This document shows positions 3,962-39,823 of a stretch of 64,000 bases of DNA, piece after piece (position 1 is the stretch's first letter; each line of letters starts with the position of its first letter). Location: assembly GCA_002348385.1 (NCBI GenBank), contig DEBD01000037.1, positions 129,467-193,466 of the forward strand. Reading direction: 5' to 3'. Both the position numbers and the translations under genes were made by a program. This stretch comes from Gammaproteobacteria bacterium UBA2965 (GTDB lineage Bacteria > Pseudomonadota > Gammaproteobacteria > Pseudomonadales > Azotimanducaceae). The notes under the pieces were generated by a model that worked only from the letters and a program-made list of their open reading frames with translations, had not been told where the DNA came from and did not search any database.

Positions 3962-4900
3962 TTGACGAACAACAGAATTCAATTGCGATATCCGAGTGAC
4001 CAATGTTTGTTCGTATTGGGATGCGACAGGTCAGGTACTACCTTGCTACAGCGCATGCTCAATGCGCACTCGAAAATCATGGTTACCTATGAGTGGAATA
4101 TTCTAAATCGGTATGAACGAGTTTTTCTTGATCATGGGCTGGAAGCACTCGCAGATGTCATCGAAGAAAGCGGTGTACTGAAAGCGCATAGCATCCTCGC
4201 GGACCAGGAACTCCGCGGCCGCGCAGACGATCAGTCATTCGCCGCAGTCATGGCGCGCTTGTTTCGCGAGCAAGCGAAAAGCCAAGGAAAGCAGTATTGG
4301 GGTGACAAGTATCCAGGATACACACGCAAGGTCGGGAGACTGGCAGAGCTCTTCCCAAACGCTTTCTTTGTTCACATTGTTCGAGATCCACGGGCGGTAG
4401 CGCTTTCTTGGGAGAAAACCCGTTGGGGGCCCAACACCGCGCCCGCTGCCGCGACCGCATGGGCTAGGCGTGTTGAACATGCCAGAGTAGCAATGCAGGA
4501 CCTGAGCGCAGAGCGTTCAATAGCCGTGCTGTATGAGGATCTGGTAAATCACCCCGAACAAACGTTGCGCAATATTTGTCGTAAGTTTGGGGTAGATTTC
4601 CAACCACAGATGCTGGAGACCTCGACTAAGACAGGGTTCAATAATCCAAATCTGGACCGGTTACATCCATTGGTGAACCTCGCGCCACAGCGCTCAGTAC
4701 TGGAAAAATGGAAGACTCAATCTCCTCGTGTCTTAACCCACATCGAAGCCCGCTGCTACGACGAAATGCAAAAATGGAACTACGTCCCTTTGAATGCAAA
4801 GCAACCGGTCGTTCCGATCGCTTGGCGCGCCTATTATCGCTTATTAGGGAGATTGCGTTCCCTGCATCGGCGCAAGCACATACCGTTCCTTAGCCGGTAA
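3962..4900 (+). CDS. Sulfotransferase family protein (PAPS-dependent)
   Basis: 5'-PSB loop LGCDRSGTTLLQRML. TTG start 4 nt after GAGGTG. Markedly lower GC than its flanks. Confidence 0.8.
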   Translation: MTNNRIQLRYPSDQCLFVLGCDRSGTTLLQRMLNAHSKIMVTYEWNILNRYERVFLDHGLEALADVIEESGVLKAHSILADQELRGRADDQSFAAVMARLFREQAKSQGKQYWGDKYPGYTRKVGRLAELFPNAFFVHIVRDPRAVALSWEKTRWGPNTAPAAATAWARRVEHARVAMQDLSAERSIAVLYEDLVNHPEQTLRNICRKFGVDFQPQMLETSTKTGFNNPNLDRLHPLVNLAPQRSVLEKWKTQSPRVLTHIEARCYDEMQKWNYVPLNAKQPVVPIAWRAYYRLLGRLRSLHRRKHIPFLSR

Positions 4901-5150
4901 ACACGTTGCACACTGCGCATGAATACGGCAAATCTTTCTCCGAAACAATTTCGCTCAGAGTTTTCGAGAATATGCGAAAGGCATGCTACCCGCGCGCAGG
5001 TCACGTGTGACGTTAAACCTCGAAACACCGGCTGAACGAGTTAACGAATCTGTTACGTGGATCGGTTGAATCTACAATCGTTCGAAGCCATCCCCCATCG
5101 CCGCCGGAACGCCAGCTCTGTAGTAGGAATTGACCTGCTCGACTGAATTC

Positions 5151-5252
5151 AGGCAGCCGAACGCTCCAACAAGGGAACGACCGCTAGGCGCTGCCTGGTG
5201 TGGGAACCACGGTAGTGTCCATCTCCTCCGGTTCGAGTCCCAGACAGATGAG
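5151..5252. repeat. Copy B of the diverged direct repeat (copy A at 3561-3657)
   Basis: Covers the last 22 or so codons plus about 30 nt of 3' flank of the CMD-like gene 5184-5699. Confidence 0.7.
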
Positions 5253-5699
5253 CACTTTGGACATGCCGAGGAAAAGCCCCACGCCCAACGCCATCTCGAC
5301 GATTTCCGCATCGCTGAAGTGCGACTTCAGCGCCTGCCTGGATCCGTGGTCCAGGCTGCCGGGCAGCCCGATAATGGCATCGGCCAGTTTGAGGACCGCG
5401 ACTTCCCGATCTGGCAGCACCGACTCGTAACCATCGGCGATGAGGTCAACCTTCTCTTCTCCCAGCCCCGCCACACGGGCGGAGTCAAAACGCACGTTTT
5501 TTCAGTAGCCGCAGTCGGTGATGCGGGCGTTGCGCATTCGGGTCATCTCTTTGAGCTCGTCGGCGACCACACCGCGCTGCCAGAACTCCGCATACAGCTC
5601 GAAGAACCGGCCGGTGGAGGCTGGTGTGTGCATCATCACCGTAGCGAACTGAGCGGGTTGATCGGGGACGGCGGAAGAGATTCTCGGTTTGGTTGACAT
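5184..5699 (-). CDS. CMD/AhpD-like protein with an in-frame TGA (5504-5502) inside its redox motif. Candidate selenoprotein (C-G-Y-U), otherwise a nonsense pseudogene.
   Basis: Track ORFs 5502-5741 and 5184-5495 are in the same frame, separated only by TGA AAA AAC. ATG 5699 lies 6 nt after GGAG. Joined product reads ...RMRNARITDCGY[TGA]KNVRFDSARVAGLGEEKV... Confidence 0.6.
5466..5484 (-). promoter_or_regulatory. Candidate bacterial SECIS-like hairpin 17 nt downstream of the TGA at 5504-5502
   Basis: Minus-strand RNA CUCCGCC-CGUGU-GGCGGGG: a 7-bp stem (one G-U pair) and a 5-nt loop containing GU. A weaker hairpin AAAAC-GUGC-GUUUU (5500-5487) precedes it. Confidence 0.4.
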
Positions 5700-5724
5700 G
5701 TTGAGCTCCGATTCCGTTTCTATT

Positions 5725-6222
5725 TCACGCCAAAGCGCCATTGCTCAGCGGCGGCGCATCCAGCACGCCGGGTTCGGCGGGCAGATCCAGCACCAACCGC
5801 AAGCGGCACGTGACGTCGAAGAAAGCAAGCGCGGTGAGCAACGACACACAGGCAGGTTCCCCAAAAGCCGCCGTCGCCACCTCCACCTGGGCGTCGGTAA
5901 CCTGATGGTGGCCGTAGGGTATTTGTTCGGCGAGCGCCAGCGCGGCTCGTTCCGGGCCGGTAAAACCTTCCACCTCGCCGGCTCGCAGGCGTTCCTGCTC
6001 GTCAGCATCGAGATTCACTTCCGCATCGCGCAGCAACCATTCTGATTCGCAATCATGAATGGCCGCAACTCGCAGTCGGCACAGCTCCAGCACGCGCCGG
6101 GGCACCAGGCCGTCCGCCCAGAAAGAGCCATAGAAGGCCCGGTAGCGCGCGAGCAGTTCCGGCCGGTGGGCCAGTGCAGCTTCCAGCGCGGTGGGTGCTT
6201 GGGTGGCGTCAATCCAGCTCAT
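5725..6222 (-). CDS. Carboxymuconolactone decarboxylase (CMD) family protein
   Basis: CMD core LELCRLRVAAIHDCESEWLL aligns with the TDCGY[TGA] segment of the downstream paralogue. Start trimmed to ATG 6222. Confidence 0.8.
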   Translation of the reverse strand: MSWIDATQAPTALEAALAHRPELLARYRAFYGSFWADGLVPRRVLELCRLRVAAIHDCESEWLLRDAEVNLDADEQERLRAGEVEGFTGPERAALALAEQIPYGHHQVTDAQVEVATAAFGEPACVSLLTALAFFDVTCRLRLVLDLPAEPGVLDAPPLSNGALA

Positions 6223-6259
6223 AAGGTGGCATCGCAAACGACGATTTCGTTTAATGGCA

Positions 6260-6303
6260 GCGCCAATAACGCTTGGCGCAAGAATGTGCTCCTTTACAGG
6301 AGC
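6260..6303. promoter_or_regulatory. Two adjacent short palindromes in a divergent intergenic region (candidate operators)
   Basis: GCGCCAA-taacgc-TTGGCGC (6260-6279) and GCTCCT-ttac-AGGAGC (6288-6303). Confidence 0.3.
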
Positions 6304-6433
6304 TAACAGTGTAGCCATTTTATGGTGCTGATTGGGATAATGTGCACTAATTCGCTGGCCGCGTGCCGGTATAACGCCCCAAGGAGAGCCAGCCATCTCT
6401 GCCACCATCTACATACATGACATCGGCGTCTAC

Positions 6434-7357
6434 GTGCCCGAGGCGCGCGTGGATAACGACGTATTCTGCAAGCTCACGGGGAAAGATCCGGAATGGTTCA
6501 TTGCCAGAACCGGCATCCATACCCGCTCTCGGGCGGGGCAGGACGAATCCACCACCTCCATGGGCTGCCAAGCCGTAGAGCAGCTGCTGGCCGCCAACCC
6601 TGAGGCTCTGGACGGAGTCGATCTGATCATCGGCTCCAGCTACACGCCTGATGACACGCTGTCCACCCTGCCCGCTCGAGTGCAGCGCCAGTTCAACATC
6701 ACCGACACCAGGGTGTACTTTCTCTCTACCGCTTGCTCGTCCTTCATCAGCGCGCTGGAGATGACGCGGTTGCTGCTGCTAAGCGGTGAGGTAGAAAAAG
6801 CCCTCATCGTGGTCTCCGAACACAACAGTTTCTACAGCGACGACGCCGACCGATTTTCCGGCCACCTGTGGGGCGACGGAGCGGCCGCCATCTTAGTGTC
6901 CATGCACCCGCAGGACGCCATGTTCTCGGTGGACTACGTAAGCTCGCGTGGCGTGGCCTGCGCCGGCAAGGGGCCTGACGCCATCTCCCTCAACCCAGCC
7001 AAAGGCAATCATGGCTTGCAGATGAGCGAGGGCCGCGACGTATTCGCACGCGCCTGTGAATATCTGGGTGATGAGATTCGCGCCGCGCTGGCCAAGCTGA
7101 AGTTGAAGCTGGCCGATATCGATTGGCTGGTACCGCATCAAGCCAACCTGCGCATTCTTACCAATGTAGCAAAGAGCCTGGGGCTACCGATGGAACGCTG
7201 CGTGGTTACCGTGGACACACTGGGCAACACAGGCTGTGCCAGCATCCCCATATCCATTCACCATGTCCTATCGCGCATCAAAGCCGGGGACATGGTGGCC
7301 GCCACCGCGTTCGGCGGCGGCTACTCCACGGGTGCCGCGATTCTTACACGAACCTGA
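6434..7357 (+). CDS. 3-oxoacyl-ACP synthase III (KAS III/FabH-like) family protein. The true start is probably upstream, near 6395.
   Basis: Cys-His-Asn contexts STACSSF, VPHQANLRI and GNTGCASIP. A conserved N-terminal strand (IYIHDIGVYVPE) is encoded upstream of the GTG at 6434. Confidence 0.85.
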   Translation: MPEARVDNDVFCKLTGKDPEWFIARTGIHTRSRAGQDESTTSMGCQAVEQLLAANPEALDGVDLIIGSSYTPDDTLSTLPARVQRQFNITDTRVYFLSTACSSFISALEMTRLLLLSGEVEKALIVVSEHNSFYSDDADRFSGHLWGDGAAAILVSMHPQDAMFSVDYVSSRGVACAGKGPDAISLNPAKGNHGLQMSEGRDVFARACEYLGDEIRAALAKLKLKLADIDWLVPHQANLRILTNVAKSLGLPMERCVVTVDTLGNTGCASIPISIHHVLSRIKAGDMVAATAFGGGYSTGAAILTRT

Positions 7358-7375
7358 CGGATCGAGGATGCGTAC

Positions 7376-7807
7376 ATGAATACAGTGGAGCTCACTCACA
7401 ACCTGGATGTTTCCGCCATTGATGCCTGGGCGGTGCTCGCCGACTTTCCCGGGTTCCTTAAGTGGGCCGGCGGGGGCCAGGGCACCATTGAGATTGAGGG
7501 CACCGGCGTGGGCATGGTTCGACACCTGAACATGCCGGGCACCGGCAAGATGGCCGAGCGGCTGGACCGCCTGGACGATGACACCACCACCATCGGCTAC
7601 TCTCTGATGTACGGCAATCCAGTCGGCATGGCCGAATACCGAGCCGTGGTGAGGTTGGAAGCCACCGAAAAGAACGCCTGCCGCATCCATTGGCACGGCG
7701 AGTTCACACCCGCCGAGGACCAACAGGCAGACGTGGTAAGGGGCAATCTGGAGGCCGCCTATCAGGGCATGGCCACGGCGCTGGCCGCATACGTCAAGGC
7801 GAGCTGA
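7376..7807 (+). CDS. SRPBCC (Bet v1-like / polyketide cyclase-dehydrase fold) family protein
   Basis: 143 aa. WAVLADFPGFLKW...YRAVVRLEA...CRIHWHGEF pattern. SD GAGGA before the ATG. Confidence 0.75.
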   Translation: MNTVELTHNLDVSAIDAWAVLADFPGFLKWAGGGQGTIEIEGTGVGMVRHLNMPGTGKMAERLDRLDDDTTTIGYSLMYGNPVGMAEYRAVVRLEATEKNACRIHWHGEFTPAEDQQADVVRGNLEAAYQGMATALAAYVKAS

Positions 7808-7840
7808 GGCGCGCAAGCGCCCATTCGATACACCACGCAT

Positions 7841-8821
7841 ATGCAGACGCGACAACTCGGCAACCTGTGGCCCGTTTCCGCGCTCACTCTGGGCGGCGGG
7901 GGAATCGGTCAGGTGTGGGGGCAGACTGATCGGCAGGAATCTGTGGCCACGGTGCGCCTGGCCGTGGACAGCGGCGTCACGCTGCTGGATCTGGCACCAG
8001 GGTATGGCCGCGGCGAAGCCGAAGCCGTGGTGGGCGAGGCCTTCGGCGGGCGACTGCCCAACGGCGTTCGCGTCACCACCAAGTGCCAGCTCGGCAGCCC
8101 ACCGGCTGATGAGATTGCCGCAACCATTCGCCGGCGCCTGCAGCACTCGCTGGCCGGGCTGCAGCTCGCACATGTAGATCTGCTGTTTCTGCATTCCAAC
8201 ATCGTTCCCGACGACTACAACTATCCAGATCGGGAGCTGCAGGACCGCTTCGCAACCCGGTGGTCGCTGTACGAGAACGAGGTGATCCCCACATTCCAGG
8301 CACTGCAGCAGGAAGGCTTGATCGGCGCCTGGGGTATTACCGGCGTAGGAATTCCGGCCACGATCCGCGAAGCCCTCGTAAACACCCTCAGACCTGGCGC
8401 GGTGCAGTGCGTGGCCAATTGCCTCGACTCCGCCGGCGACATGCGCCGCTATCCTGAACCGGCGGAGCCCCGCGTGACCATTGCCGCGGCAGCGCAGCAC
8501 GGCGTTGGCGTCATGGGCATCCGCGCGGTGCAGGCTGGGGCGCTGACGGACGGATTCGACCGGGAAATGTCGCCGGGAGAAGATCTGGCCGACTTTGAGC
8601 GCGCCGCTGCCTTTCGCGACCTGGCAGCACAGTGGGGAACCACGCCGGCCCGACTCGCCCACCGCTATGCACTGAGCATGGAATACGTAGACACCGTGGT
8701 ATTAGGCGTGAAGAACACGCAGGAACTGGTCGAGTGCCTGGAAGCAGAATCCGACGGCCCGCTCAGCGCAGATGAAATCCAGGCCATCGACAGCGCCTGC
8801 CAAAACTCAACAGAAAGCTAG
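7841..8821 (+). CDS. Aldo/keto reductase
   Basis: LLDLAPGYGRGEAEAVVGEAF and a downstream AKR barrel pattern. Confidence 0.9.
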   Translation: MQTRQLGNLWPVSALTLGGGGIGQVWGQTDRQESVATVRLAVDSGVTLLDLAPGYGRGEAEAVVGEAFGGRLPNGVRVTTKCQLGSPPADEIAATIRRRLQHSLAGLQLAHVDLLFLHSNIVPDDYNYPDRELQDRFATRWSLYENEVIPTFQALQQEGLIGAWGITGVGIPATIREALVNTLRPGAVQCVANCLDSAGDMRRYPEPAEPRVTIAAAAQHGVGVMGIRAVQAGALTDGFDREMSPGEDLADFERAAAFRDLAAQWGTTPARLAHRYALSMEYVDTVVLGVKNTQELVECLEAESDGPLSADEIQAIDSACQNSTES

Positions 8822-8830
8822 GAAGCAGCC

Positions 8831-9661
8831 ATGCGAATCGGCGTATCCCTCCCTGTCCGGGAGATGCAGAACGACCTCACAGCCATCCGCGACTTCGCGC
8901 AATCCGCCGAAGCACTCGGTTACACGCACCTGCGGGTCCCGGAACAGATCATCCGGCCCGGTAACGGCCACCTGTTCGAACCCATCACCATGATGACCTA
9001 CATAGCCGCCATCACGCAGACAATCGAGCTGGTGCCATCGGTGGTGATCCTGCCCGCACGGCAGACGGCTTTGCTGGCAAAACAGATCGCCTCGCTGGAC
9101 GTGCTGTCCGGCGGCAGGGTGCGACTGGGCATCGGCGTGGGCGGCAGCGAGGAGGAGTACACAGCGCAAGGCCAGGATTTTCATACGCGCGGCGCGCGCT
9201 GCAACGAGCAGATGGCCCTGCTGAAACTCTTGTGGACCCAGGAAACCGTGGATTTCCAAGGCAAGTGGGACACCATCCAGGGGGCAGGGCTGAATCCCCT
9301 GCCCATCCAGCAACCCATCCCGTTGTGGATCGGTGCGCGTTCCGTGCCTGGCCCATCGGTGATCAACCGCATCGGCACACTGGCCAACGGCTGGTTCGTA
9401 CTGTGCTCTCCCGAAGAGTTTCCCGAAGTAAGCGGCGCAATCGGCCAAGCGGCGCAATCGGCCGGCCGAAATCCGAAAGACATCGGCACGGAAGCAGGCG
9501 TTGCGGTGGTAGGTCCCCGAGAGGCCGAGTGGCAGGACCGAGTGCGTGGCTGGCAGCAGATCGGGCTCACCCACCTGTGCCTGAGAACTCTAGGCGGCGA
9601 TCTCACGCCCCAGCAGCACCTCGACAAGCTGGCGGAAGTGGTCGAGCAAATTCCCAGATAA
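8831..9661 (+). CDS. Luciferase-like monooxygenase (LLM class flavin/F420-dependent oxidoreductase)
   Basis: LDVLSGGRVRLGIGVGG signature, TIM-barrel LLM N-terminus MRIGVSLP. Confidence 0.9.
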   Translation: MRIGVSLPVREMQNDLTAIRDFAQSAEALGYTHLRVPEQIIRPGNGHLFEPITMMTYIAAITQTIELVPSVVILPARQTALLAKQIASLDVLSGGRVRLGIGVGGSEEEYTAQGQDFHTRGARCNEQMALLKLLWTQETVDFQGKWDTIQGAGLNPLPIQQPIPLWIGARSVPGPSVINRIGTLANGWFVLCSPEEFPEVSGAIGQAAQSAGRNPKDIGTEAGVAVVGPREAEWQDRVRGWQQIGLTHLCLRTLGGDLTPQQHLDKLAEVVEQIPR

Positions 9662-9699
9662 CCAGCAGACGCCCCTACCGAGGCGTTGGCGCCGGAAAT

Positions 9700-10383
9700 C
9701 TAACGCTGTATCCACCCGCCAGCGAACGGAATCGCTTGGCCTACGAAAAAATCGCTCTCGTCAGAGGCCAGAAACAGCGCAAAGCGCGCATCTTCTTCTG
9801 CCGTGGCCAGCCGACCCAGCGGTACCTGGCGGCGCAGGGAGTTCTGGAACGACTCCTTCTCACGCAACTCAGGGGGATAGTAAACCGGATTTTCCACGTA
9901 GTTCTGAGCGATCAGGTTCACCTGGATGTTGTGCGGCGCCACCTCCACCCCGAGGCTCTGAACGTAACCCACCTGAGCCGCCCGCGCCGCACTGTAGGCC
10001 GCCACGGTGCGCAAACCTTTAAGCGCAACGGCGCTGCCATACACCACGATCTTGCCCTGTCCCCGCTCGATCATCTGCGGCAGCACCGCGCGGCACAGCC
10101 GATGCAGCGGGTGCACCATGGTGTCGAAAGACTGCTGCCACCTGGCGTCATCCAATTCCACGGCCTCGGTTCCGGAATGATTGGGACCCGCAAGATTGGC
10201 CACGAGAATATCAACGCGACCCGAGGCCGACACTAACTCCTCGCACGCGGCGGATCGGGTCAGGTCACTGGTGTCGGCGATGACCTCCGCACCTTGCGCC
10301 GAGAACAATTCCTGAGTGGCCGGGCCCATGTAGTCATCGGCCTGAGTCAAGAGCACCCGCTTGCCTTCCAGTCGTCGTGTCAC
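9700..10383 (-). CDS. Halohydrin dehalogenase-like SDR-superfamily protein
   Basis: T-x4-Y-x-G (TQADDYMG) replaces the Gly-rich NAD motif. S-x12-Y-x3-R (SAVALKGLRTVAAYSAAR) has Arg in place of the SDR Lys. NYVENPVYYPPE resembles the HheC segment PNYLHSEDSPYFYP. Start set to GTG 10383, downstream of GGAAGGTGG. Confidence 0.7.
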   Translation of the reverse strand: MTRRLEGKRVLLTQADDYMGPATQELFSAQGAEVIADTSDLTRSAACEELVSASGRVDILVANLAGPNHSGTEAVELDDARWQQSFDTMVHPLHRLCRAVLPQMIERGQGKIVVYGSAVALKGLRTVAAYSAARAAQVGYVQSLGVEVAPHNIQVNLIAQNYVENPVYYPPELREKESFQNSLRRQVPLGRLATAEEDARFALFLASDESDFFVGQAIPFAGGWIQR

Positions 10384-10482
10384 CGCCGGCCCACCTTCCG
10401 TTTCGCTAACGCGTTCAGCAGGATAATGAACTCGCAGGCGGGGTGCTATGCTCGCTGGTGCCCTGTGCGTCACCGTGGGGGT

Positions 10483-10506
10483 GGCACCCATTCACCAATG
10501 GGTGCC
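10483..10506. promoter_or_regulatory. Perfect 10-bp inverted repeat with a 4-nt spacer
   Basis: GGCACCCATT-cacc-AATGGGTGCC, between the crotonase stop (10588) and the HHDH-like start (10383). No U-tract on either strand. Confidence 0.4.
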
Positions 10507-10587
10507 GAAGATGACAATAACCGGGCTAGCCGCGCGCTAATCCATGCGGCTTCGCGCACGAACCCCGGCACTGGCGGTTTCCATAGC

Positions 10588-11418
10588 CTAGTCGAAGAAC
10601 GGAATCTTCACGCCAGCCTCTTTCATGGCGTCTGCACGCATCCGCTCGAACGAAGATGCATGCCCCACGTGCTGCAGGTTGAAGGCCGCCTGCTGGGCAG
10701 TCCAGAAACCTTGCGCATCCTGGGTCTGGTTGCAGGCCATCTTTGCCAGCTTCAGCGAGTAGCTGGGCCGCTGACCAATCTTCTGCGCCAGCTCAAGCGT
10801 GAAGTCGCCCAGTTCGTCCTTCGGCACGACGTGATTCACCATGCCCAGGTTATAGGCCTCCTGAGCGCTGACCGGGTCACCGGTGAACAGCATCTCTTTC
10901 GCTTTGCGCAGGCCCAGTTCCCAGGGATGGGCGAACCACTCCACACCGTTCACGCCAAAGTTGACGGTCAGATCGATGAACGAAGCCTCTTCGCTGGCGA
11001 CGATGAGATCGCACACCCACATGAGCATGAGCCCGCCGGCAATGGTCTTGCCATGCACCTGCGCGATAGTGGGCTTGGGTAGCGTCTGCCAGCGACGGCA
11101 CATGTTGAGATACACCTCTTCTTCGTACGCCATTAAGCCTTCCGAGCCCGGCTTGCCGATGCCGCCGGAAATGCCAACGCGCTCCGGCACGTAGTCGTCA
11201 GAGCCGGGCTTCATATCATGGCCAGACGAGAAGTGCGGCCCCTCGCCCGACAGAATGATGACCTTCACGTCATCGTCGAAAGCCGCGGCGGTGAACGCAT
11301 CGTTCAACTCATAGGTCATGCGCTGATTCTGCGCGTTACGCGCCTCCGGACGATTCAGCTTGATGTGGGCCACTCCGCCTTCAAGCACCTCATATGCGAC
11401 CGTTTGGTAATCCGTCAT
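10588..11418 (-). CDS. Enoyl-CoA hydratase/isomerase (crotonase) family protein
   Basis: LNRPEARNAQN and GEGPHFSSGHDM. Confidence 0.9.
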   Translation of the reverse strand: MTDYQTVAYEVLEGGVAHIKLNRPEARNAQNQRMTYELNDAFTAAAFDDDVKVIILSGEGPHFSSGHDMKPGSDDYVPERVGISGGIGKPGSEGLMAYEEEVYLNMCRRWQTLPKPTIAQVHGKTIAGGLMLMWVCDLIVASEEASFIDLTVNFGVNGVEWFAHPWELGLRKAKEMLFTGDPVSAQEAYNLGMVNHVVPKDELGDFTLELAQKIGQRPSYSLKLAKMACNQTQDAQGFWTAQQAAFNLQHVGHASSFERMRADAMKEAGVKIPFFD

Positions 11419-11427
11419 CGATATCCC

Positions 11428-12972
11428 CTAGCCTATGCTGCGATCTGTGGGCCAGTATGGCGCCCGCAGCTTACGTTTGTTGATCTTGCCCATGGTATTA
11501 CGGCCGATATCGGCCACGAAATCGTATGAACGCGGGCACTTATAGCCAGCGAGATGCTCGCGGCAGAACGCATCCAGATCGGCTGCATCCGGCGCTGTAG
11601 CCCCTTCTGCCAGCACGATCAGCGCTTTCAGCTCCTCGCCCATTTCCTTATTCGGCACGCCGATCACCGCACAATCCGCAATAGCGTCATGGGTCACCAG
11701 CACCTGCTCGGTTTCCGCCGGATAGATATTCACCCCGCCGGACACAACCATGTCGGAGCTGCGGTCGGTAATGAACAGATAGCCGTCGTCGTCCAGATAG
11801 CCGATCTCTCCCAAGGTAAACACGCCCGGCTGCAGGTGCGCGGCCTCAGTCTTGTCGGGAGCGTTGTGATAGATGATTCCGCGCCCTGTAGTGTCGCGGA
11901 AATAGATCTGCCCTTCCTCGCCGGCGGCCAACCGGTTGCCGTCTTCGTCGAGAATGAGGCATTCGAACGGTGGTAAGGTCTTGCCGACCGAGCCCGGGTG
12001 CTCGAGCCATTCCTCCGAACCGATGGCATTGGTGCTGCCGGCCTCGGTGGCGCCATAGGCTTCAAACAGCACCGGACCAATCCACTCGATCATCGCGCGT
12101 TTGACTTCCACCGGACAGGCGGCGCCCGTATGGCTCACCATCAGCAGGCTGGAAACGTCGTACTTGGCTCGAACGTCTTCCGGCAGTGCCAGCAGGCGTT
12201 GGAAATGAGTGGGCACCATGAGGGTGTTGGTAACGCCGTGCTGCTCGATGGCGCGCAACACGTTCTCGGCATTGAACCGCCCCAGAATCACCAGGGTCTG
12301 GCCCGCGGTCACAGCCCGCACGCTGCCCAGCGGCCCAGTGTGGTACAACGGACTCACTACCAGCGAGACGCCGCCGGCGGCAAACCGGGCGTTCTGACCG
12401 ACAATCTCGAAGTGCTCCGCCACGGTTACCCCACCGGCAAACATGGTGGGCGGGGTTTCGGTACCTTTGGGGCGGCCCGTGGTGCCCGACGTGTAATGCA
12501 GAAACGGCTTGGGGGCCATGTCTGAGGGTGGGTCCGTATCTTCTCCGCGCTCGAGGAAAGCCTCCCAGGACAAGACCCCCGAATCGTCCGGGCAGCGCCA
12601 ACCAACCACCAGGCCAACACCCGCAGCGCGAGCAGCCTCCAGCCCCACCTCGGCAGTTTCCGGCCCCACCAGCACCATGCCGGACTGGGAATCTTCGAGA
12701 ATGTACTGAACCTCTTCGGCCGTGAGGTGGAAATTCACCGGCACCGTGGAAATACCGGCCAGAATCCCCGAGAGGTGGCCCAGCACGGTTTCCGCCGCGT
12801 TTTCCGCAAAAACGGCGATACGCTGGCCCTCGCCAAGGCCCGCCCCCAACAGCGCATTGGTGGCGCGATTGAGCGTGGAGTCCAATTCGGCCCAGGTGAT
12901 TACCACCCGTTCGTCCCCAAGGGCGGTCTCATTCGGAGTCTCGGCTGCCCTTTGTGCCGTGGCTATGGTCAT
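11428..12972 (-). CDS. AMP-dependent acyl-CoA synthetase/ligase
   Basis: AMP-binding motif LHYTSGTTGRPKG. C-terminal KINKRKL. Confidence 0.9.
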   Translation of the reverse strand: MTIATAQRAAETPNETALGDERVVITWAELDSTLNRATNALLGAGLGEGQRIAVFAENAAETVLGHLSGILAGISTVPVNFHLTAEEVQYILEDSQSGMVLVGPETAEVGLEAARAAGVGLVVGWRCPDDSGVLSWEAFLERGEDTDPPSDMAPKPFLHYTSGTTGRPKGTETPPTMFAGGVTVAEHFEIVGQNARFAAGGVSLVVSPLYHTGPLGSVRAVTAGQTLVILGRFNAENVLRAIEQHGVTNTLMVPTHFQRLLALPEDVRAKYDVSSLLMVSHTGAACPVEVKRAMIEWIGPVLFEAYGATEAGSTNAIGSEEWLEHPGSVGKTLPPFECLILDEDGNRLAAGEEGQIYFRDTTGRGIIYHNAPDKTEAAHLQPGVFTLGEIGYLDDDGYLFITDRSSDMVVSGGVNIYPAETEQVLVTHDAIADCAVIGVPNKEMGEELKALIVLAEGATAPDAADLDAFCREHLAGYKCPRSYDFVADIGRNTMGKINKRKLRAPYWPTDRSIG

Positions 12973-13101
12973 GGCGTTGTCCTTCTTTCAGCGCAACCGC
13001 ACAACCTGCCACATGTTCGCGCCGACCACAATTCCCACACCAGCCGCCTGGCCTGTCCCGAGACATCGGGGTAGTCTTGATCTGAGCGTCGGAGGAAGAA
13101 C

Positions 13102-13797
13102 ATGTCAGCCACAACCAAGTACCAATTAACAAGCGCCTATACGTGACCGTGGGTGCAGCGCGCCGTGATCGTAATGCGCGCCAAAGACGTCGATTTTGAA
13201 GTGACCTACATCAATCTGCGCGACAAGCCGGGTTGGTTCCTGAAGATCTCCCCCCACGGCAAGGTGCCCGTGCTCCAGGTCGATGGCGAGCCCCTGTTCG
13301 AGTCCAACGCTATCGCCGAGTACCTAGATGAGGCGGTGGAACCGCGGCTCCATCCGGTAGACCCGGTCAAACGCGCGCGCAACCGGGCCTGGACTGACTT
13401 TGTGCCCACATTCGCGGGCGCTCTGATGGGCCTGTACTACGGCCGAACGAAAGAAAACGCCGAAGACCGCACCAAGGCTGCGCGCCAGAGGCTCAATCGC
13501 CTCGAGGAAGCCATCGCCAACGAGCGGGGTAACGATGGGCCCTATTTCAACGGCCCGCAGCTTTGCCTGGTAGACGCGGCCTACGCTCCGTTTCTGCAGC
13601 GCTTTCTGATCGTGGAGCAGTGGCTGCAAAGCGGCGTGCTCGACGACTATCCGCTGGTGAATGCCTGGGCCCATGCCCTAGTGGAAAGCGACGTCGTGAC
13701 GGGCTCTGTACCCGACAACTTCATGGAGGAGTTTGAAGGCAACATCCGCAGCATGGCGCCAGAAATCGCGGCGCGGATGGACCGCAAAAGCGCCTAA
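13102..13797 (+). CDS. Glutathione S-transferase with an in-frame TGA (13144-13146) at the catalytic-Cys position. Candidate selenoprotein (U-P-W-V). The segment 13153-13797 is certain.
   Basis: GGAGGA (13091-13096) then ATG 13102. The frame reads MSATTKYQLTSAYT[TGA]PWVQRAVIVMRAKDVDFEVTYINLRDKPGWFLKISPHGKVPVLQ. Confidence 0.65.
13158..13181 (+). promoter_or_regulatory. Candidate bacterial SECIS-like hairpin 11 nt downstream of the TGA at 13144
   Basis: GCGCGC-cgugaucguaau-GCGCGC: a 6-bp all-GC stem and a 12-nt loop containing GU. Confidence 0.4.
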
Positions 13798-13800
13798 ACG

Positions 13801-14757
13801 ATGCAGTTCACCACTCTGGGCCGCACCGGCCTTCGCGTCAGTGTGGCCGGATTGGGCTGCGGCGGCCACAGCCGCCTGGGGCAGTCCTACGGCAACAGCA
13901 CGGCCGACAGTGTAGCCGTGGTGTCTGCGGCGCTGGACGCCGGTATCAACTTCATCGACACCGCAGCCGCCTACCGCACAGAGCAGATCGTGGGAGAGGC
14001 ACTGCAGGGTCGGCGTGAATCCGTGGTCATCTCCACGAAATCCGGCGTGCAGAAGCAGGATCGGGGTACGCGCGAGATGCGGCCCATTGCGCCCGCAGAG
14101 CTGCACAAACGCTTAGACGACAGCCTGTCGCGACTGCGCACTGACTACGTAGACGTATACAACCTGCACGGCGTAGTGGAATCGGAACTCGACTACGCCC
14201 ACAACGAACTGCTGCCTGTGCTACAGGCACAGCAGCAACAGGGCAAGATCCGCTTCCTGGGCATCACCGAGCGGTTCATTGCAGACACGGGGCACGCCAT
14301 GCTGCAGCAAGCGCTGCAAAGCGATGTGTGGGATGTGGTGATGGTGGGATTCAATCTGCTGAACCCTTCTGCTCGAGAACGCGTGCTCAACCGCACCCAG
14401 GCTCAAAACGTGGGGGTTCAGGATATGTTCGCCGTGCGGCGTGCCTTGAGCGACCCTGAAGCGCTGGTCGAAGAAATCCAGATTGCCGTCGCAACCGGAC
14501 AGGTGGACGCTGACGCGGTAGACCTCAAAGACCCCCTGGGAAGCATTCTCGAGCAATCCGGGGCAGCATCCGTCGTGGAGCTTGCCTACCGCTTCTGCCG
14601 CCACGAACCCGGCGTGCAAGTGGTGCTCACCGGCACCGGCAAGATTGAGCACCTGCTGCACAACGTGGACGCTATCAATGGGCCGCCGTTACCAGATCAG
14701 ACTCAGTGCGACCTGGCAGACCTGTTTGGTCGCGTAGACTGCCTGTCGGGAAACTAG
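13801..14757 (+). CDS. Aldo/keto reductase
   Basis: FIDTAAAYRTEQIVGEAL. The ATG lies 3 nt after the GST stop. Confidence 0.9.
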   Translation: MQFTTLGRTGLRVSVAGLGCGGHSRLGQSYGNSTADSVAVVSAALDAGINFIDTAAAYRTEQIVGEALQGRRESVVISTKSGVQKQDRGTREMRPIAPAELHKRLDDSLSRLRTDYVDVYNLHGVVESELDYAHNELLPVLQAQQQQGKIRFLGITERFIADTGHAMLQQALQSDVWDVVMVGFNLLNPSARERVLNRTQAQNVGVQDMFAVRRALSDPEALVEEIQIAVATGQVDADAVDLKDPLGSILEQSGAASVVELAYRFCRHEPGVQVVLTGTGKIEHLLHNVDAINGPPLPDQTQCDLADLFGRVDCLSGN

Positions 14758-29640: not shown

Positions 29641-30915
29641 ATGCAGCAGGAACAGATAGATACGTTACGCAAACTCATGGAGTACGAGGCGGGCCGCACC
29701 ACGCCCCCCGAAGGGTTTCCGGCGCTACCCGATATTCCCGGAGGGCGCTATACGGATGCGCGCTTTTTCGAGCTGGAAAAAGAGCACATCTGGCGAAAAT
29801 CCTGGCTGCTGGCATCCCACATAGACGAGGTGCCCGAGCCCGGCTGCTTCCGGTTGTGGGAAAACGCCGGACAACCGGTGGTCATCGTTCACGCCGACAG
29901 CGGCGCCATCAACGCTTTCTACAATACCTGCAGCCACCGGGGCGCGCCGGTAATCACCGAAGCGTCAGGACAGCGCCCGAGGCTCACCTGCAAGTACCAC
30001 GGCTGGAGCTACACCCACGATGGTGAGCTGGTCGCCATCCGCGATCCGGAGGATTTTCGCGATCTGGATTTTTCCTGCCGCGGCCTGCGACCGGTGCGCT
30101 GCGAGCGCTTCGGCAATCTCATTTTCGTCAACTTCGACGATGACGCACCCTCCCTGATGGAGTGGCTCGGCCCCATCGCAGACGAATGGAAGGAGTTTCA
30201 GTTCGAGAACTGCCGCCTGGCCGCACGCCACATTTTTGATCTCGACTGCAACTGGAAGGTGGCCATGGAGGCCAATACCGAGGTCTACCACGTTCGCAGC
30301 ATTCATCCCAAGACCGTTTACCCAATGCTCGACGATCGACGCAACATCAACACCCTCTACCCCAATGGGCACGGCCGCATGGTCGCGCCAGCACAGAAAG
30401 GCGCCGAGGCTATGCGAGCCGGACGCATGGGCGAGTACCCCGAGGTGGAAACCGTGGGGGAAATCGGTCGCACCTGCACCCAGTCTTACGGAATCTTTCC
30501 CAATTGGGTGTCACCGCTGAGCCATCGTGCCATCCCGCCGCTGATTTTCTGGCCCAACGGCATCAACAAGTGCCGGCTGGAAACCTGGACCATGGCACCG
30601 GATTGGGGCGACCTGCCGGCACCGGACTCCTGGACCGTGAATCAGGGAGAGAGCCTGAATGCGGTGCTGTTGGAAGACACCGAGTTTGGCGGGTGGATCC
30701 AGAAATCCATGCAGTCATACGGCTTCCAGGGCGTGCCGCTGAGCTATCAGGAGGCGCGCATCTACCACTGGAATCAGTCCGCCGACAAGATGATCGGCAT
30801 CGACAACATTCCCCCGGAACTGCGGGTCGCACAGGTGATCGGAGACGAATGGGTATACCCCAACGACCCGCGCATCGAGCTGGCGGAAAAGGAGCTCGCG
30901 CAGTCCGCAGGCTGA
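29641..30915 (+). CDS. Rieske [2Fe-2S] oxygenase, alpha subunit
   Basis: CSHRG...CKYHGWSY. ATG 29641 follows GGAGGAAGGAAGC. Confidence 0.9.
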   Translation: MQQEQIDTLRKLMEYEAGRTTPPEGFPALPDIPGGRYTDARFFELEKEHIWRKSWLLASHIDEVPEPGCFRLWENAGQPVVIVHADSGAINAFYNTCSHRGAPVITEASGQRPRLTCKYHGWSYTHDGELVAIRDPEDFRDLDFSCRGLRPVRCERFGNLIFVNFDDDAPSLMEWLGPIADEWKEFQFENCRLAARHIFDLDCNWKVAMEANTEVYHVRSIHPKTVYPMLDDRRNINTLYPNGHGRMVAPAQKGAEAMRAGRMGEYPEVETVGEIGRTCTQSYGIFPNWVSPLSHRAIPPLIFWPNGINKCRLETWTMAPDWGDLPAPDSWTVNQGESLNAVLLEDTEFGGWIQKSMQSYGFQGVPLSYQEARIYHWNQSADKMIGIDNIPPELRVAQVIGDEWVYPNDPRIELAEKELAQSAG

Positions 30916-38668: not shown

Positions 38669-39823
38669 TCAAGTAGACAGAATGGTCACGCCGCTGATAC
38701 CGGGCGCCCCATACACGTGGGTGTACGCCACCTTGGGATTACCCGGCACCTGACGCTCACCAGCACCACCCCGGAGCTGCAGCACGTTCTCGTAGACCTG
38801 ACGCAGCCCCGACGCACCGATGGGCTCGCCGTTGGCAATGCAGCCGCCGTCCGTATTCACCGGAAAACGACCATCGATTTCAGTCTCGCCACGCTCCAGC
38901 ATCCACTCCTGCTCGCCGTCCTCGCAGAAACCGTTCTCGGCCATGTGCATGATCTCAGCACCCGACTCCGTGTCCTGCAACTGCGCCACATCAACATCTT
39001 CGGGCCCGATGCCGGCGAACTCGAAGGCCGCTTTGGAGGCATCCATGGTAGGCCCATCACACTCGTCGTTGGACAGATAGGAGGCCTTGACCTCGAAACT
39101 CCCGTAACGTCTCGAGCGCATCACAGCGGCTTTCAGATAGATGGGCTTGGAAGTGTATTTGTGGGCCTGGTCCGCCCGACACAACACCATAGCCACCCCG
39201 CCCTCTCCCGGAGAGCAGAACATATACTGAGTCAGCGGATAGGCCAGCATGCGCGACTGCAGAATCTCGTCTTCGGTGAACGCCTGCTTGCGCCAGGCCA
39301 TGGGGTTCATGGAGCCGTTGCGTGTGGCCTTGGCAGCCACACGAGCCAGCGTGCGGTGACTGATCTGGTGCTTTTGCATGTAGCGATTGATCTTCATGGC
39401 AAAAAACTGCGGGTTGATGGCCATACCGCTGCCGCCGTACCAGTCCGCCCCGCCGTCAACAGGATGCACAGGGCGGTCGCTGGCGAAGGCTCCGCGAGGA
39501 TGCTTATCGAAGCCGACGGCTATGCCAATGTCCTGGATGCCCGCCATGATCATGTTGTAGGCAGTGGACAGTGCCGTGCCGCCAGTAGCACAACCGTTGA
39601 CCACATTGACGAACTGCAGTCCCGTAAGCCCCATCATGCTCACCATCTGATCCGGTGCCCCCGCCGCCATGCTGCCACCTACGGCAAAGCCAAGGTCTTT
39701 CCAACCGATGCCGGCATCCCTGCAGGCTTCACGCGCTGCTATAGCCCCCTGCTCCATGCCGGTGACACCTTCATGCCGGCCGAACGGGTGCATGCCGATG
39801 CCGACGATTGCTACTTCATTCAT
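38669..39823 (-). CDS. Thiolase-like protein, SCP-x/nonspecific lipid-transfer-protein type
   Basis: VAIVGIGMHPFGR and NGCATGG. Start trimmed to ATG 39823, downstream of AGGAG. Confidence 0.9.
   Translation of the reverse strand: MNEVAIVGIGMHPFGRHEGVTGMEQGAIAAREACRDAGIGWKDLGFAVGGSMAAGAPDQMVSMMGLTGLQFVNVVNGCATGGTALSTAYNMIMAGIQDIGIAVGFDKHPRGAFASDRPVHPVDGGADWYGGSGMAINPQFFAMKINRYMQKHQISHRTLARVAAKATRNGSMNPMAWRKQAFTEDEILQSRMLAYPLTQYMFCSPGEGGVAMVLCRADQAHKYTSKPIYLKAAVMRSRRYGSFEVKASYLSNDECDGPTMDASKAAFEFAGIGPEDVDVAQLQDTESGAEIMHMAENGFCEDGEQEWMLERGETEIDGRFPVNTDGGCIANGEPIGASGLRQVYENVLQLRGGAGERQVPGNPKVAYTHVYGAPGISGVTILST

Follow-up and report, generated by a model that had tools for sequence, protein, structure and literature searches.

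Selenoproteins with a glutathione transferase (GST) fold, and CMD/AhpD-like selenoproteins with a CxxU motif in which U is selenocysteine (Sec), have been listed since 2005, in the Sargasso Sea study (PMC1088965), the Global Ocean Sampling (GOS) study (PMC2398784) and a 2026 review (PMC13188914). The GST-like family was reported by Zhang, Fomenko and Gladyshev in 2005 (PMC1088965) and by Zhang and Gladyshev in 2008 (PMC2398784), and has a PF13409 entry (PMC13188914); the 2005 and 2008 papers contain 4 and 12 metagenomic GST sequences, respectively, with the motif unstated (PMC1088965, PMC2398784). Here, we describe one gene of each kind, with in-frame TGA codons that lie 7.6 kb apart, in a 64,000-nucleotide stretch of the genome of Gammaproteobacteria bacterium UBA2965. 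This stretch, hereafter the window, corresponds to C5:129467-193466 (C numbers denote contigs) of a 3.34 Mb draft assembled in 48 contigs. We consider both to be genuine bacterial selenoprotein genes that use standard Sec decoding, a reading to which we assign a probability of about 0.94. Both are new members of established selenoprotein families and not new kinds of selenoprotein.

The GST-like gene resembles its published counterparts in its GST fold, its in-frame UGA, the wide distribution of cysteine (Cys) homologues and its occurrence in marine bacteria. It is distinguished by belonging to a subfamily defined by the motif T-U-P-W-V-Q-R-A-V-I, in which the Sec form predominates (69 of the 80 nearest loci, one genome per species), and, unlike the published metagenomic examples, to which it is likened here by description, it is placed in Pseudomonadales and in many metagenome-assembled genomes (MAGs) of Alphaproteobacteria. 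The CMD/AhpD-like gene likewise shares with the published CMD domain-containing and AhpD-like 2 selenoproteins (pfam02627) the CMD fold, a CxxU motif in which Sec takes the position of the second Cys, and a downstream hairpin whose apical loop contains G; it differs in forming a subfamily separate from the curated models and in being paired, in proteobacteria, with a Cys-only CMD-like gene.

The GST-like gene (13102..13797, + strand) is a frame of 231 codons that opens with an ATG at 13102, 5 nt after a Shine-Dalgarno sequence, GGAGGA (13091..13096, +), read from the sequence, and whose single internal stop is a TGA at 13144-13146 (+; codon 15) within the motif Y-T-U-P-W-V-Q-R. With this TGA read as U, the 231-residue product matches the Pfam models GST_N_2 (69 bits), GST_N_3 (68 bits), GST_C_2 (28 bits) and GST_C (25 bits), all above their cut-offs, as well as GST_N, and these matches describe an N-terminal thioredoxin-like GST domain followed by a C-terminal helical GST domain. 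Among proteins of known structure, it matches by sequence two Omega-class, Cys-type enzymes, TDR1 of Leishmania (PDB 4ags; E = 5e-29) and human GSTO1 (PDB 1eem; E ~1e-22). In both alignments, U15 of the U-P-W motif falls on the catalytic Cys of a C-P-F motif (Cys32 in GSTO1), such that in all three the catalytic residue lies in a C-P-[FYW] motif, or its Sec equivalent, at the start of helix alpha1, and the glutathione-binding motifs V-P and E-S align also. Unlike GSTO1 and TDR1, the protein carries Sec for Cys, and sequence identity to them is low; moreover, 14 residues precede U here, as opposed to 31 before Cys32 of GSTO1, and the orthologues begin 9-13 residues before U. Because the N-terminal extension of the Omega class is absent, we name the protein Omega-like and do not assign it to the class. 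On sequence grounds it is thus a putative Cys-type, Omega-like glutathione transferase with Sec standing in for Cys. Sec would replace the nucleophilic Cys, and a selenenylsulfide with glutathione would form, so that a role as a thiol transferase or reductase is more probable for the enzyme than one in glutathione conjugation.

The CMD/AhpD-like gene (5184..5699, - strand) comprises 171 codons from an ATG at 5699 down to 5184, with a GGAG Shine-Dalgarno sequence (5706..5709, -) at a 6-nt spacing, again read from the sequence. Its only internal stop is the TGA at 5504-5502 (5502..5504, -), in the motif D-C-G-Y-U, a CxxU that is kept in most orthologues. The 171-residue product matches the AhpD-like protein PA0269 in the PDB (E = 2.6e-11), in an alignment that sets C-G-Y-U against C-A-Y-C and places Sec at the second Cys of the CxxC motif of PA0269. 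That motif occupies the same place in the CMD fold of PA0269 (PDB 2ijc, 2o4d) and of Mycobacterium tuberculosis AhpD as it does here; unlike these two proteins, the CMD protein has CxxU, an N-terminal extension of 45 residues and no AhpC partner nearby. Orthologues share 45-74% identity and a common N-terminus, M-S-T-x-P-R. The best-supported reading is that of an AhpD-type CxxU oxidoreductase in which Sec would take the place of the second of the two redox-active Cys residues in CxxC, with a putative role as a peroxidase or reductase. The protein scores far under curated models for AhpD-type (seleno)proteins, namely NF053654 (YciW-related; 24.7 vs 310 bits), NF041238 (AhpD_rel_CFYUT; 15.4 vs 175 bits) and TIGR01926 (32.4 bits, cut-off 81.8), and we therefore treat it as a separate subfamily. 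The initial annotation of the window, made from the sequence alone, had proposed that in both genes the only internal stop falls on the redox-active Cys codon, and that both full-length frames have a proper Shine-Dalgarno sequence and ATG. The alignments to Cys32 of GSTO1 and to the second Cys of the PA0269 CxxC bear out the first proposal, and the GGAGGA and GGAG elements before the ATGs at 13102 and 5699 agree with the second.

Directly upstream of the Sec-CMD gene lies a Cys-only CMD-like gene (5725..6408, -; probable start ATG 6222), which contains the motif A-I-H-D-C-E-S-E-W and matches Pfam CMD weakly. A homologue of this gene occupies the same position in 24 of 36 orthologous loci, including most of the proteobacterial ones and that of a Dehalococcoidia MAG; among these 36 loci it is absent from the 10 that belong to Actinomycetota. 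The Cys-only gene and the Sec-CMD gene probably share an operon, and the product of the former may be a hetero-oligomer partner of the Sec-CMD protein.

If the two TGAs were inactivating nonsense mutations or assembly errors, both genes would be pseudogenes or truncated, which is how gene callers treat them, and the assembly is, after all, a draft. The state of the orthologues makes this explanation extremely unlikely. In a search of 80 related genomes with stops read through, eight GST orthologues (61-72% identity) were found in eight genomes of the same family, and all eight have exactly one TGA, always in T-U-P-W-V-Q-R-A-V-I; more distant homologues in other families (32-39% identity, n=9) have Cys in L/I-C-P-Y/F-V-Q-R. 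A wider scan, with one genome per GTDB species, yielded the 80 closest GST loci (59-73% identity), drawn from Pseudomonadales MAGs and many Alphaproteobacteria MAGs, of which 69 have TGA, 10 have TGT or TGC and one is unresolved. The CMD gene gives a similar picture: orthologues in sister genera have TGA in 13 of 14 cases, in T-D-C-G-Y/F-U-K/R-x-V-R-F, with Cys in the remaining one, and in the GTDB species set TGA is present in 20 of 22 resolved loci and Cys in two. The Cys forms of the CMD gene are loci L040, L047, L153 and L154, and the TGA-bearing loci extend to Acidimicrobiia and a Dehalococcoidia MAG. The same codon is thus a TGA in separate assemblies from several phyla.

For both genes, conserved coding sequence runs in a single frame up to the UGA and on beyond it, and the protein is conserved with synonymous variation on either side. 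In the 69 Sec forms of the GST gene, the nine residues before U (K-Y-H-L-I-S-S-x-T), which take the place of strand beta1 by alignment to GSTO1, are conserved, and their codons vary synonymously, with TAT in 36 and TAC in 29 sequences, four different Ser codons and three different Thr codons. Most orthologues have GTC, GTT or GTA in place of the GTG at 13153 that gene callers take as the GST start, and the GTG following the CMD UGA is likewise unconserved; downstream re-initiation is therefore not what has been conserved, a further point against the genes being truncated. The initial annotation had judged recoding a simpler explanation than two independent nonsense mutations, and had asked whether close relatives carry intact Cys versions. 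The retention of TGA at the same codon across orthologues favours recoding, with Cys confined to a minority of orthologues and to distant homologues.

The machinery for Sec decoding is complete in this genome, including the tRNA-Sec and selB genes for which a check had been advised. On contig C43, selA (522 bits, curated cut-off 268) overlaps selB (419 bits vs 242) by 4 nt, and a tRNA-Sec gene with anticodon UCA follows 12 nt after selB (ARAGORN; Rfam RF01852, 74 bits vs 47). This cluster lies outside the window at C43:327431-330797. Roughly 4 kb away, at C43:334754-337048, selD (266 bits vs cut-off 125) encodes a SelD fused to an N-terminal pyridine-nucleotide oxidoreductase domain (Ndh-SelD; TIGR03169, 426 bits vs cut-off 310), a fusion reported in the GOS study (PMC2398784); the active-site loop of this SelD is C-G-G-C, the Cys form. 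Across the order, selA is carried by 44 of the 48 genomes from this family vs 4 of 32 genomes from other families, and the four family members without it comprise one genome (G001) that is 57% complete and three that are 85-93% complete. The trait therefore appears to be kept almost universally in this marine gammaproteobacterial family. The selA gene is present in each of the 18 related genomes with a TGA form. Nonsense mutations arising independently, or sequencing errors, cannot give this pattern of TGA conservation together with selA co-occurrence.

A genome-wide reassignment of TGA, to Trp or Gly for example, would also turn both TGAs into sense codons, and it would open other long frames, such as that at 6434-8821; we regard its probability as negligible. 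TGA is the commonest ordinary stop, ending 734 of 1654 long coding open reading frames (ORFs) genome-wide (44%) and 16 of 45 in the window, and a change of code is therefore excluded. The initial annotation had reached the same view from the many ordinary genes in the window that end in TGA, and coding-like frames do terminate at the two TGAs that it cited (407-409 and 30913-30915). Furthermore, where reassignment would fuse frames, each TGA marks a border between one Pfam domain and the next, and at the aligned positions homologues carry Cys and not Trp or Gly.

With standard Sec decoding as the preferred reading, a ribosome reaching the in-frame UGA would encounter a downstream hairpin, the bacterial Sec insertion sequence (SECIS), which would recruit SelB with Sec-tRNA(Sec). 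To make the latter, SelA would draw on selenophosphate from the Ndh-SelD fusion protein, and after insertion of Sec, translation would go on to the true stop. Candidate SECIS hairpins follow both UGAs. That of the GST gene (13158..13181, +) starts 11 nt after the UGA and consists of GCGCGC, a 12-nt loop (CGUGAUCGUAAU) and GCGCGC; that of the CMD gene (5466..5484, -) starts 17 nt after the UGA and has a 7-bp stem and a 5-nt loop, CUCCGCC/CGUGU/GGCGGGG. Both apical loops contain a G, as is expected of bacterial SECIS elements. Compared with the E. coli fdhF SECIS and the bSECISearch model, the two hairpins are alike in being stem-loops that begin 11-17 nt downstream of the UGA and in having G (and U) at the leading positions of the apical loop. 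They differ in that the loops begin with CGUG, in that the GST loop measures 12 nt unless inner pairs form, and in that the binding of SelB is here a prediction. The apical loops of four hairpins in this genome begin with CGUG, namely those of GST (13164-13169), CMD (5477-5473), a peroxiredoxin gene on C4 and a UGSC-family gene on C48, the last two of which are described below; this loop start may be a lineage-specific SelB recognition motif.

The support for these hairpins comes from conservation, which takes a different form in each gene. For CMD it is covariation. In 14 family orthologues, 93.9% of cells in the stem pair, vs 39-58% with slid partners, and two stem pairs switch from C-G to U-A by synonymous changes on both sides. 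A wider set, of 33 distinct Sec forms in three phyla, gives 84% paired cells vs 33-55% in slid controls, with 28 double-sided changes at four of the seven pairs, and the observed score was reached by 0 of 500 shuffles. The Cys orthologues L040, L153 and L154 no longer have this stem. For GST it is invariance at synonymous sites. Codons +4 to +7 (CAG CGC GCC GTG) are synonymously invariant in 67-69 of the 69 Sec forms (entropy 0-0.19 bit), as against 1.6-1.8 bit of free variation at fourfold-degenerate codons near the hairpin in the same sequences, and these four codons vary in the 10 Cys forms. The GST hairpin region is under nucleotide-level constraint that is tied to the presence of the UGA, and Cys forms are without either hairpin structure. 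Changes within the GST stem include one compensatory G-C to A-U and some G-C to G-U.

The Sec-GST clade unites, at 59-73% identity, this gammaproteobacterium and Alphaproteobacteria MAGs of the Rhodospirillaceae, Hyphomicrobiales, Methyloligellaceae and Paracoccaceae (loci L061-L140), and the SECIS sequence is nearly identical across the Gamma- and Alphaproteobacteria loci. This distribution, as read from the sequences, suggests horizontal spread of the Sec-GST gene together with its SECIS.

Several results weigh against reading the two genes in this way. The match of the CMD protein to Pfam CMD (PF02627) is marginal, only just reaching the cut-off (24.3 vs 23 bits), and none of the curated NCBIfam models reaches its cut-off for full-length GST or CMD. 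The GST stem offers little variation to test, with one double-sided change, because the protein is too conserved at that stretch. Rfam returned no match between positions 5000 and 14000 (5000-14000) at E values of 10 or less. RNAalifold found no consensus structure in the 33-sequence CMD set, and the explicit pair counts with slid and shuffled controls were therefore used; these counts tested a structure that had been specified from this one sequence. In folding energy, neither hairpin outperforms shuffled sequence (z = +0.25 to +1.4), and energy was therefore dropped as evidence. The GC-rich hairpins that the initial annotation had noted within about 25 nt of each UGA are present, starting 11 and 17 nt after it, and the evidence for them is their conservation.

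Finally, we infer the insertion of selenium, the binding of SelB to the hairpins and the enzymatic activities from sequence. This bears on the alternative that the UGA is read through without Sec, by near-cognate Trp or Cys insertion or by Cys carried on tRNA-Sec at low selenium, with the natural protein being largely a Cys or Trp form. Selenium is scarce in marine settings, and Cys orthologues are evidently viable (10 of the 80 GST loci). Against these points stand a complete and conserved Sec pathway, gene-specific SECIS hairpins that are kept alongside the TGA forms, and the placement of the UGA, always, on a redox Cys position of the kind where use of Sec is known. We consider read-through of this type very unlikely, and retain the interpretation that both UGAs would specify Sec.

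The initial annotation had also anticipated more selenoproteins elsewhere in the genome, and the search yielded six or more. The genome was scanned by codon usage for in-frame TGAs that have coding sequence before and after them, which gave 205 candidates; windows around 140 of these were concatenated and run against Pfam, and a test for Pfam and NCBIfam matches spanning the TGA was combined with hairpin ranking. Together with GST (T-U-P-W, TGA at C5:142610) and CMD (C-G-Y-U, TGA at C5:134968), the scan identified eight selenoprotein genes. Two further genes are of CMD type, one at C19:48202-48756 (-; C-R-Y-U, TGA at C19:48574) and one at C46:239-937 (-; C-F-T-U, TGA at C46:533). The others encode an AhpC/TSA peroxiredoxin of the TxxU type (C4:54242-54769, +; T-G-G-U, TGA at C4:54431), a UGSC-family protein (C48:16455-16988, -; TGA at C48:16701; PF24696, E = 8e-31), a SelW-like Rdx protein (C15:14581-14802, -; C-A-Q-U, TGA at C15:14770; TIGR02174, 61 bits vs 34) and a PrdB-like UxxC protein (+; U-P-V-C, TGA at C38:2832; TIGR04483, 166 bits, under the 300-bit cut-off). 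The short Pfam windows missed the PrdB-like gene, which the hairpin ranking recovered, and eight is thus a minimum. In seven of the eight genes, the hairpin has a stem of about 7 bp and a 5-nt loop and starts 10-17 nt after the UGA; GST differs with its 6-bp stem and 12-nt loop. This genome-wide scan, which was not exhaustive, found no Sec-type formate dehydrogenase. A redox selenoproteome of at least eight genes matches the picture from ocean metagenomes, here tied to a single genome.

Nearly all other TGA candidates proved to be adjacent genes in a shared frame, in which one domain ends at the TGA and the next begins after it. Candidates A002, A008, A156 and B011 were set aside, as no domain spans the TGA, and a thiolase/hydrolase pair at about position 38669 of the window consists of ordinary adjacent genes in a shared frame. 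The 795-residue read-through frame at 6434-8821 (+) was likewise rejected, being made up of three ordinary adjacent genes (KAS III-like, SRPBCC polyketide cyclase-like and aldo-keto reductase) with nothing but TGA stops between them and with Pfam domains that stop at each TGA.

The consequences are felt mainly in annotation, and knowledge of Sec decoding itself is unchanged. The 2026 review describes the same annotation problem (PMC13188914), to which this case contributes a genomic setting, a sharp definition of two subfamilies together with their SECIS elements, and a tally of the public records affected. The expectation of the initial annotation that gene callers would output a shortened GST and two CMD fragments was confirmed by exact-sequence look-up (NCBI, ENA, JGI/IMG, Tara, Logan), in which these pieces exist as separate public proteins. 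The GST is stored in N-terminally shortened versions of 214 and 207 residues, and the CMD protein as a 103-residue C-terminal fragment and as N-terminal fragments of 65 and 79 residues. All cluster members have the same truncated lengths, and the only one with a descriptive name is a hypothetical protein from a gammaproteobacterium. The stored GST is thus without strand beta1 and its nucleophile, and the stored CMD is split in two, such that two enzymes and dozens of their orthologues in public MAGs are held as catalytically dead fragments. With no NCBIfam model at cut-off, model-based selenoprotein annotation is unlikely to recover either; many records would be put right by a profile based on two clades, that of the T-U-P-W GST and that of the T-D-C-G-Y/F-U CMD protein.

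Several of these observations can be drawn together in a broader proposal, which we offer tentatively and regard as distinctly less probable than its opposite. In this proposal, the proteobacterial Sec-CMD protein would form an obligate pair with the upstream Cys-only CMD-like protein, which has a single conserved Cys in H-D/E/G-C-x-x-E-W, giving an AhpD-type redox enzyme that is a hetero-oligomer and in which one subunit carries the selenol; the T-U-P-W GST would represent a mostly Sec-form clade common to Alpha- and Gammaproteobacteria, without a curated model and truncated in essentially every public annotation; and the CGUG loop start in four SECIS elements would be a lineage-specific SelB signature.

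The segment from 5184 to 13797 holds both selenoprotein genes and eight unrelated genes between them. After the CMD-like partner (5725-6408) comes a lipid/polyketide-type run (6434-12972) that encodes KAS III, an SRPBCC cyclase, an aldo-keto reductase, a luciferase-like oxidoreductase, a short-chain dehydrogenase/reductase (SDR), an enoyl-CoA hydratase and an AMP-binding acyl-CoA synthetase. The neighbours of the GST gene are unconserved in other orthologous loci, and no operon-based function can therefore be inferred for it. Outside the run, a sulfotransferase gene lies at 3962-4900 and a second aldo-keto reductase gene at 13801-14757.

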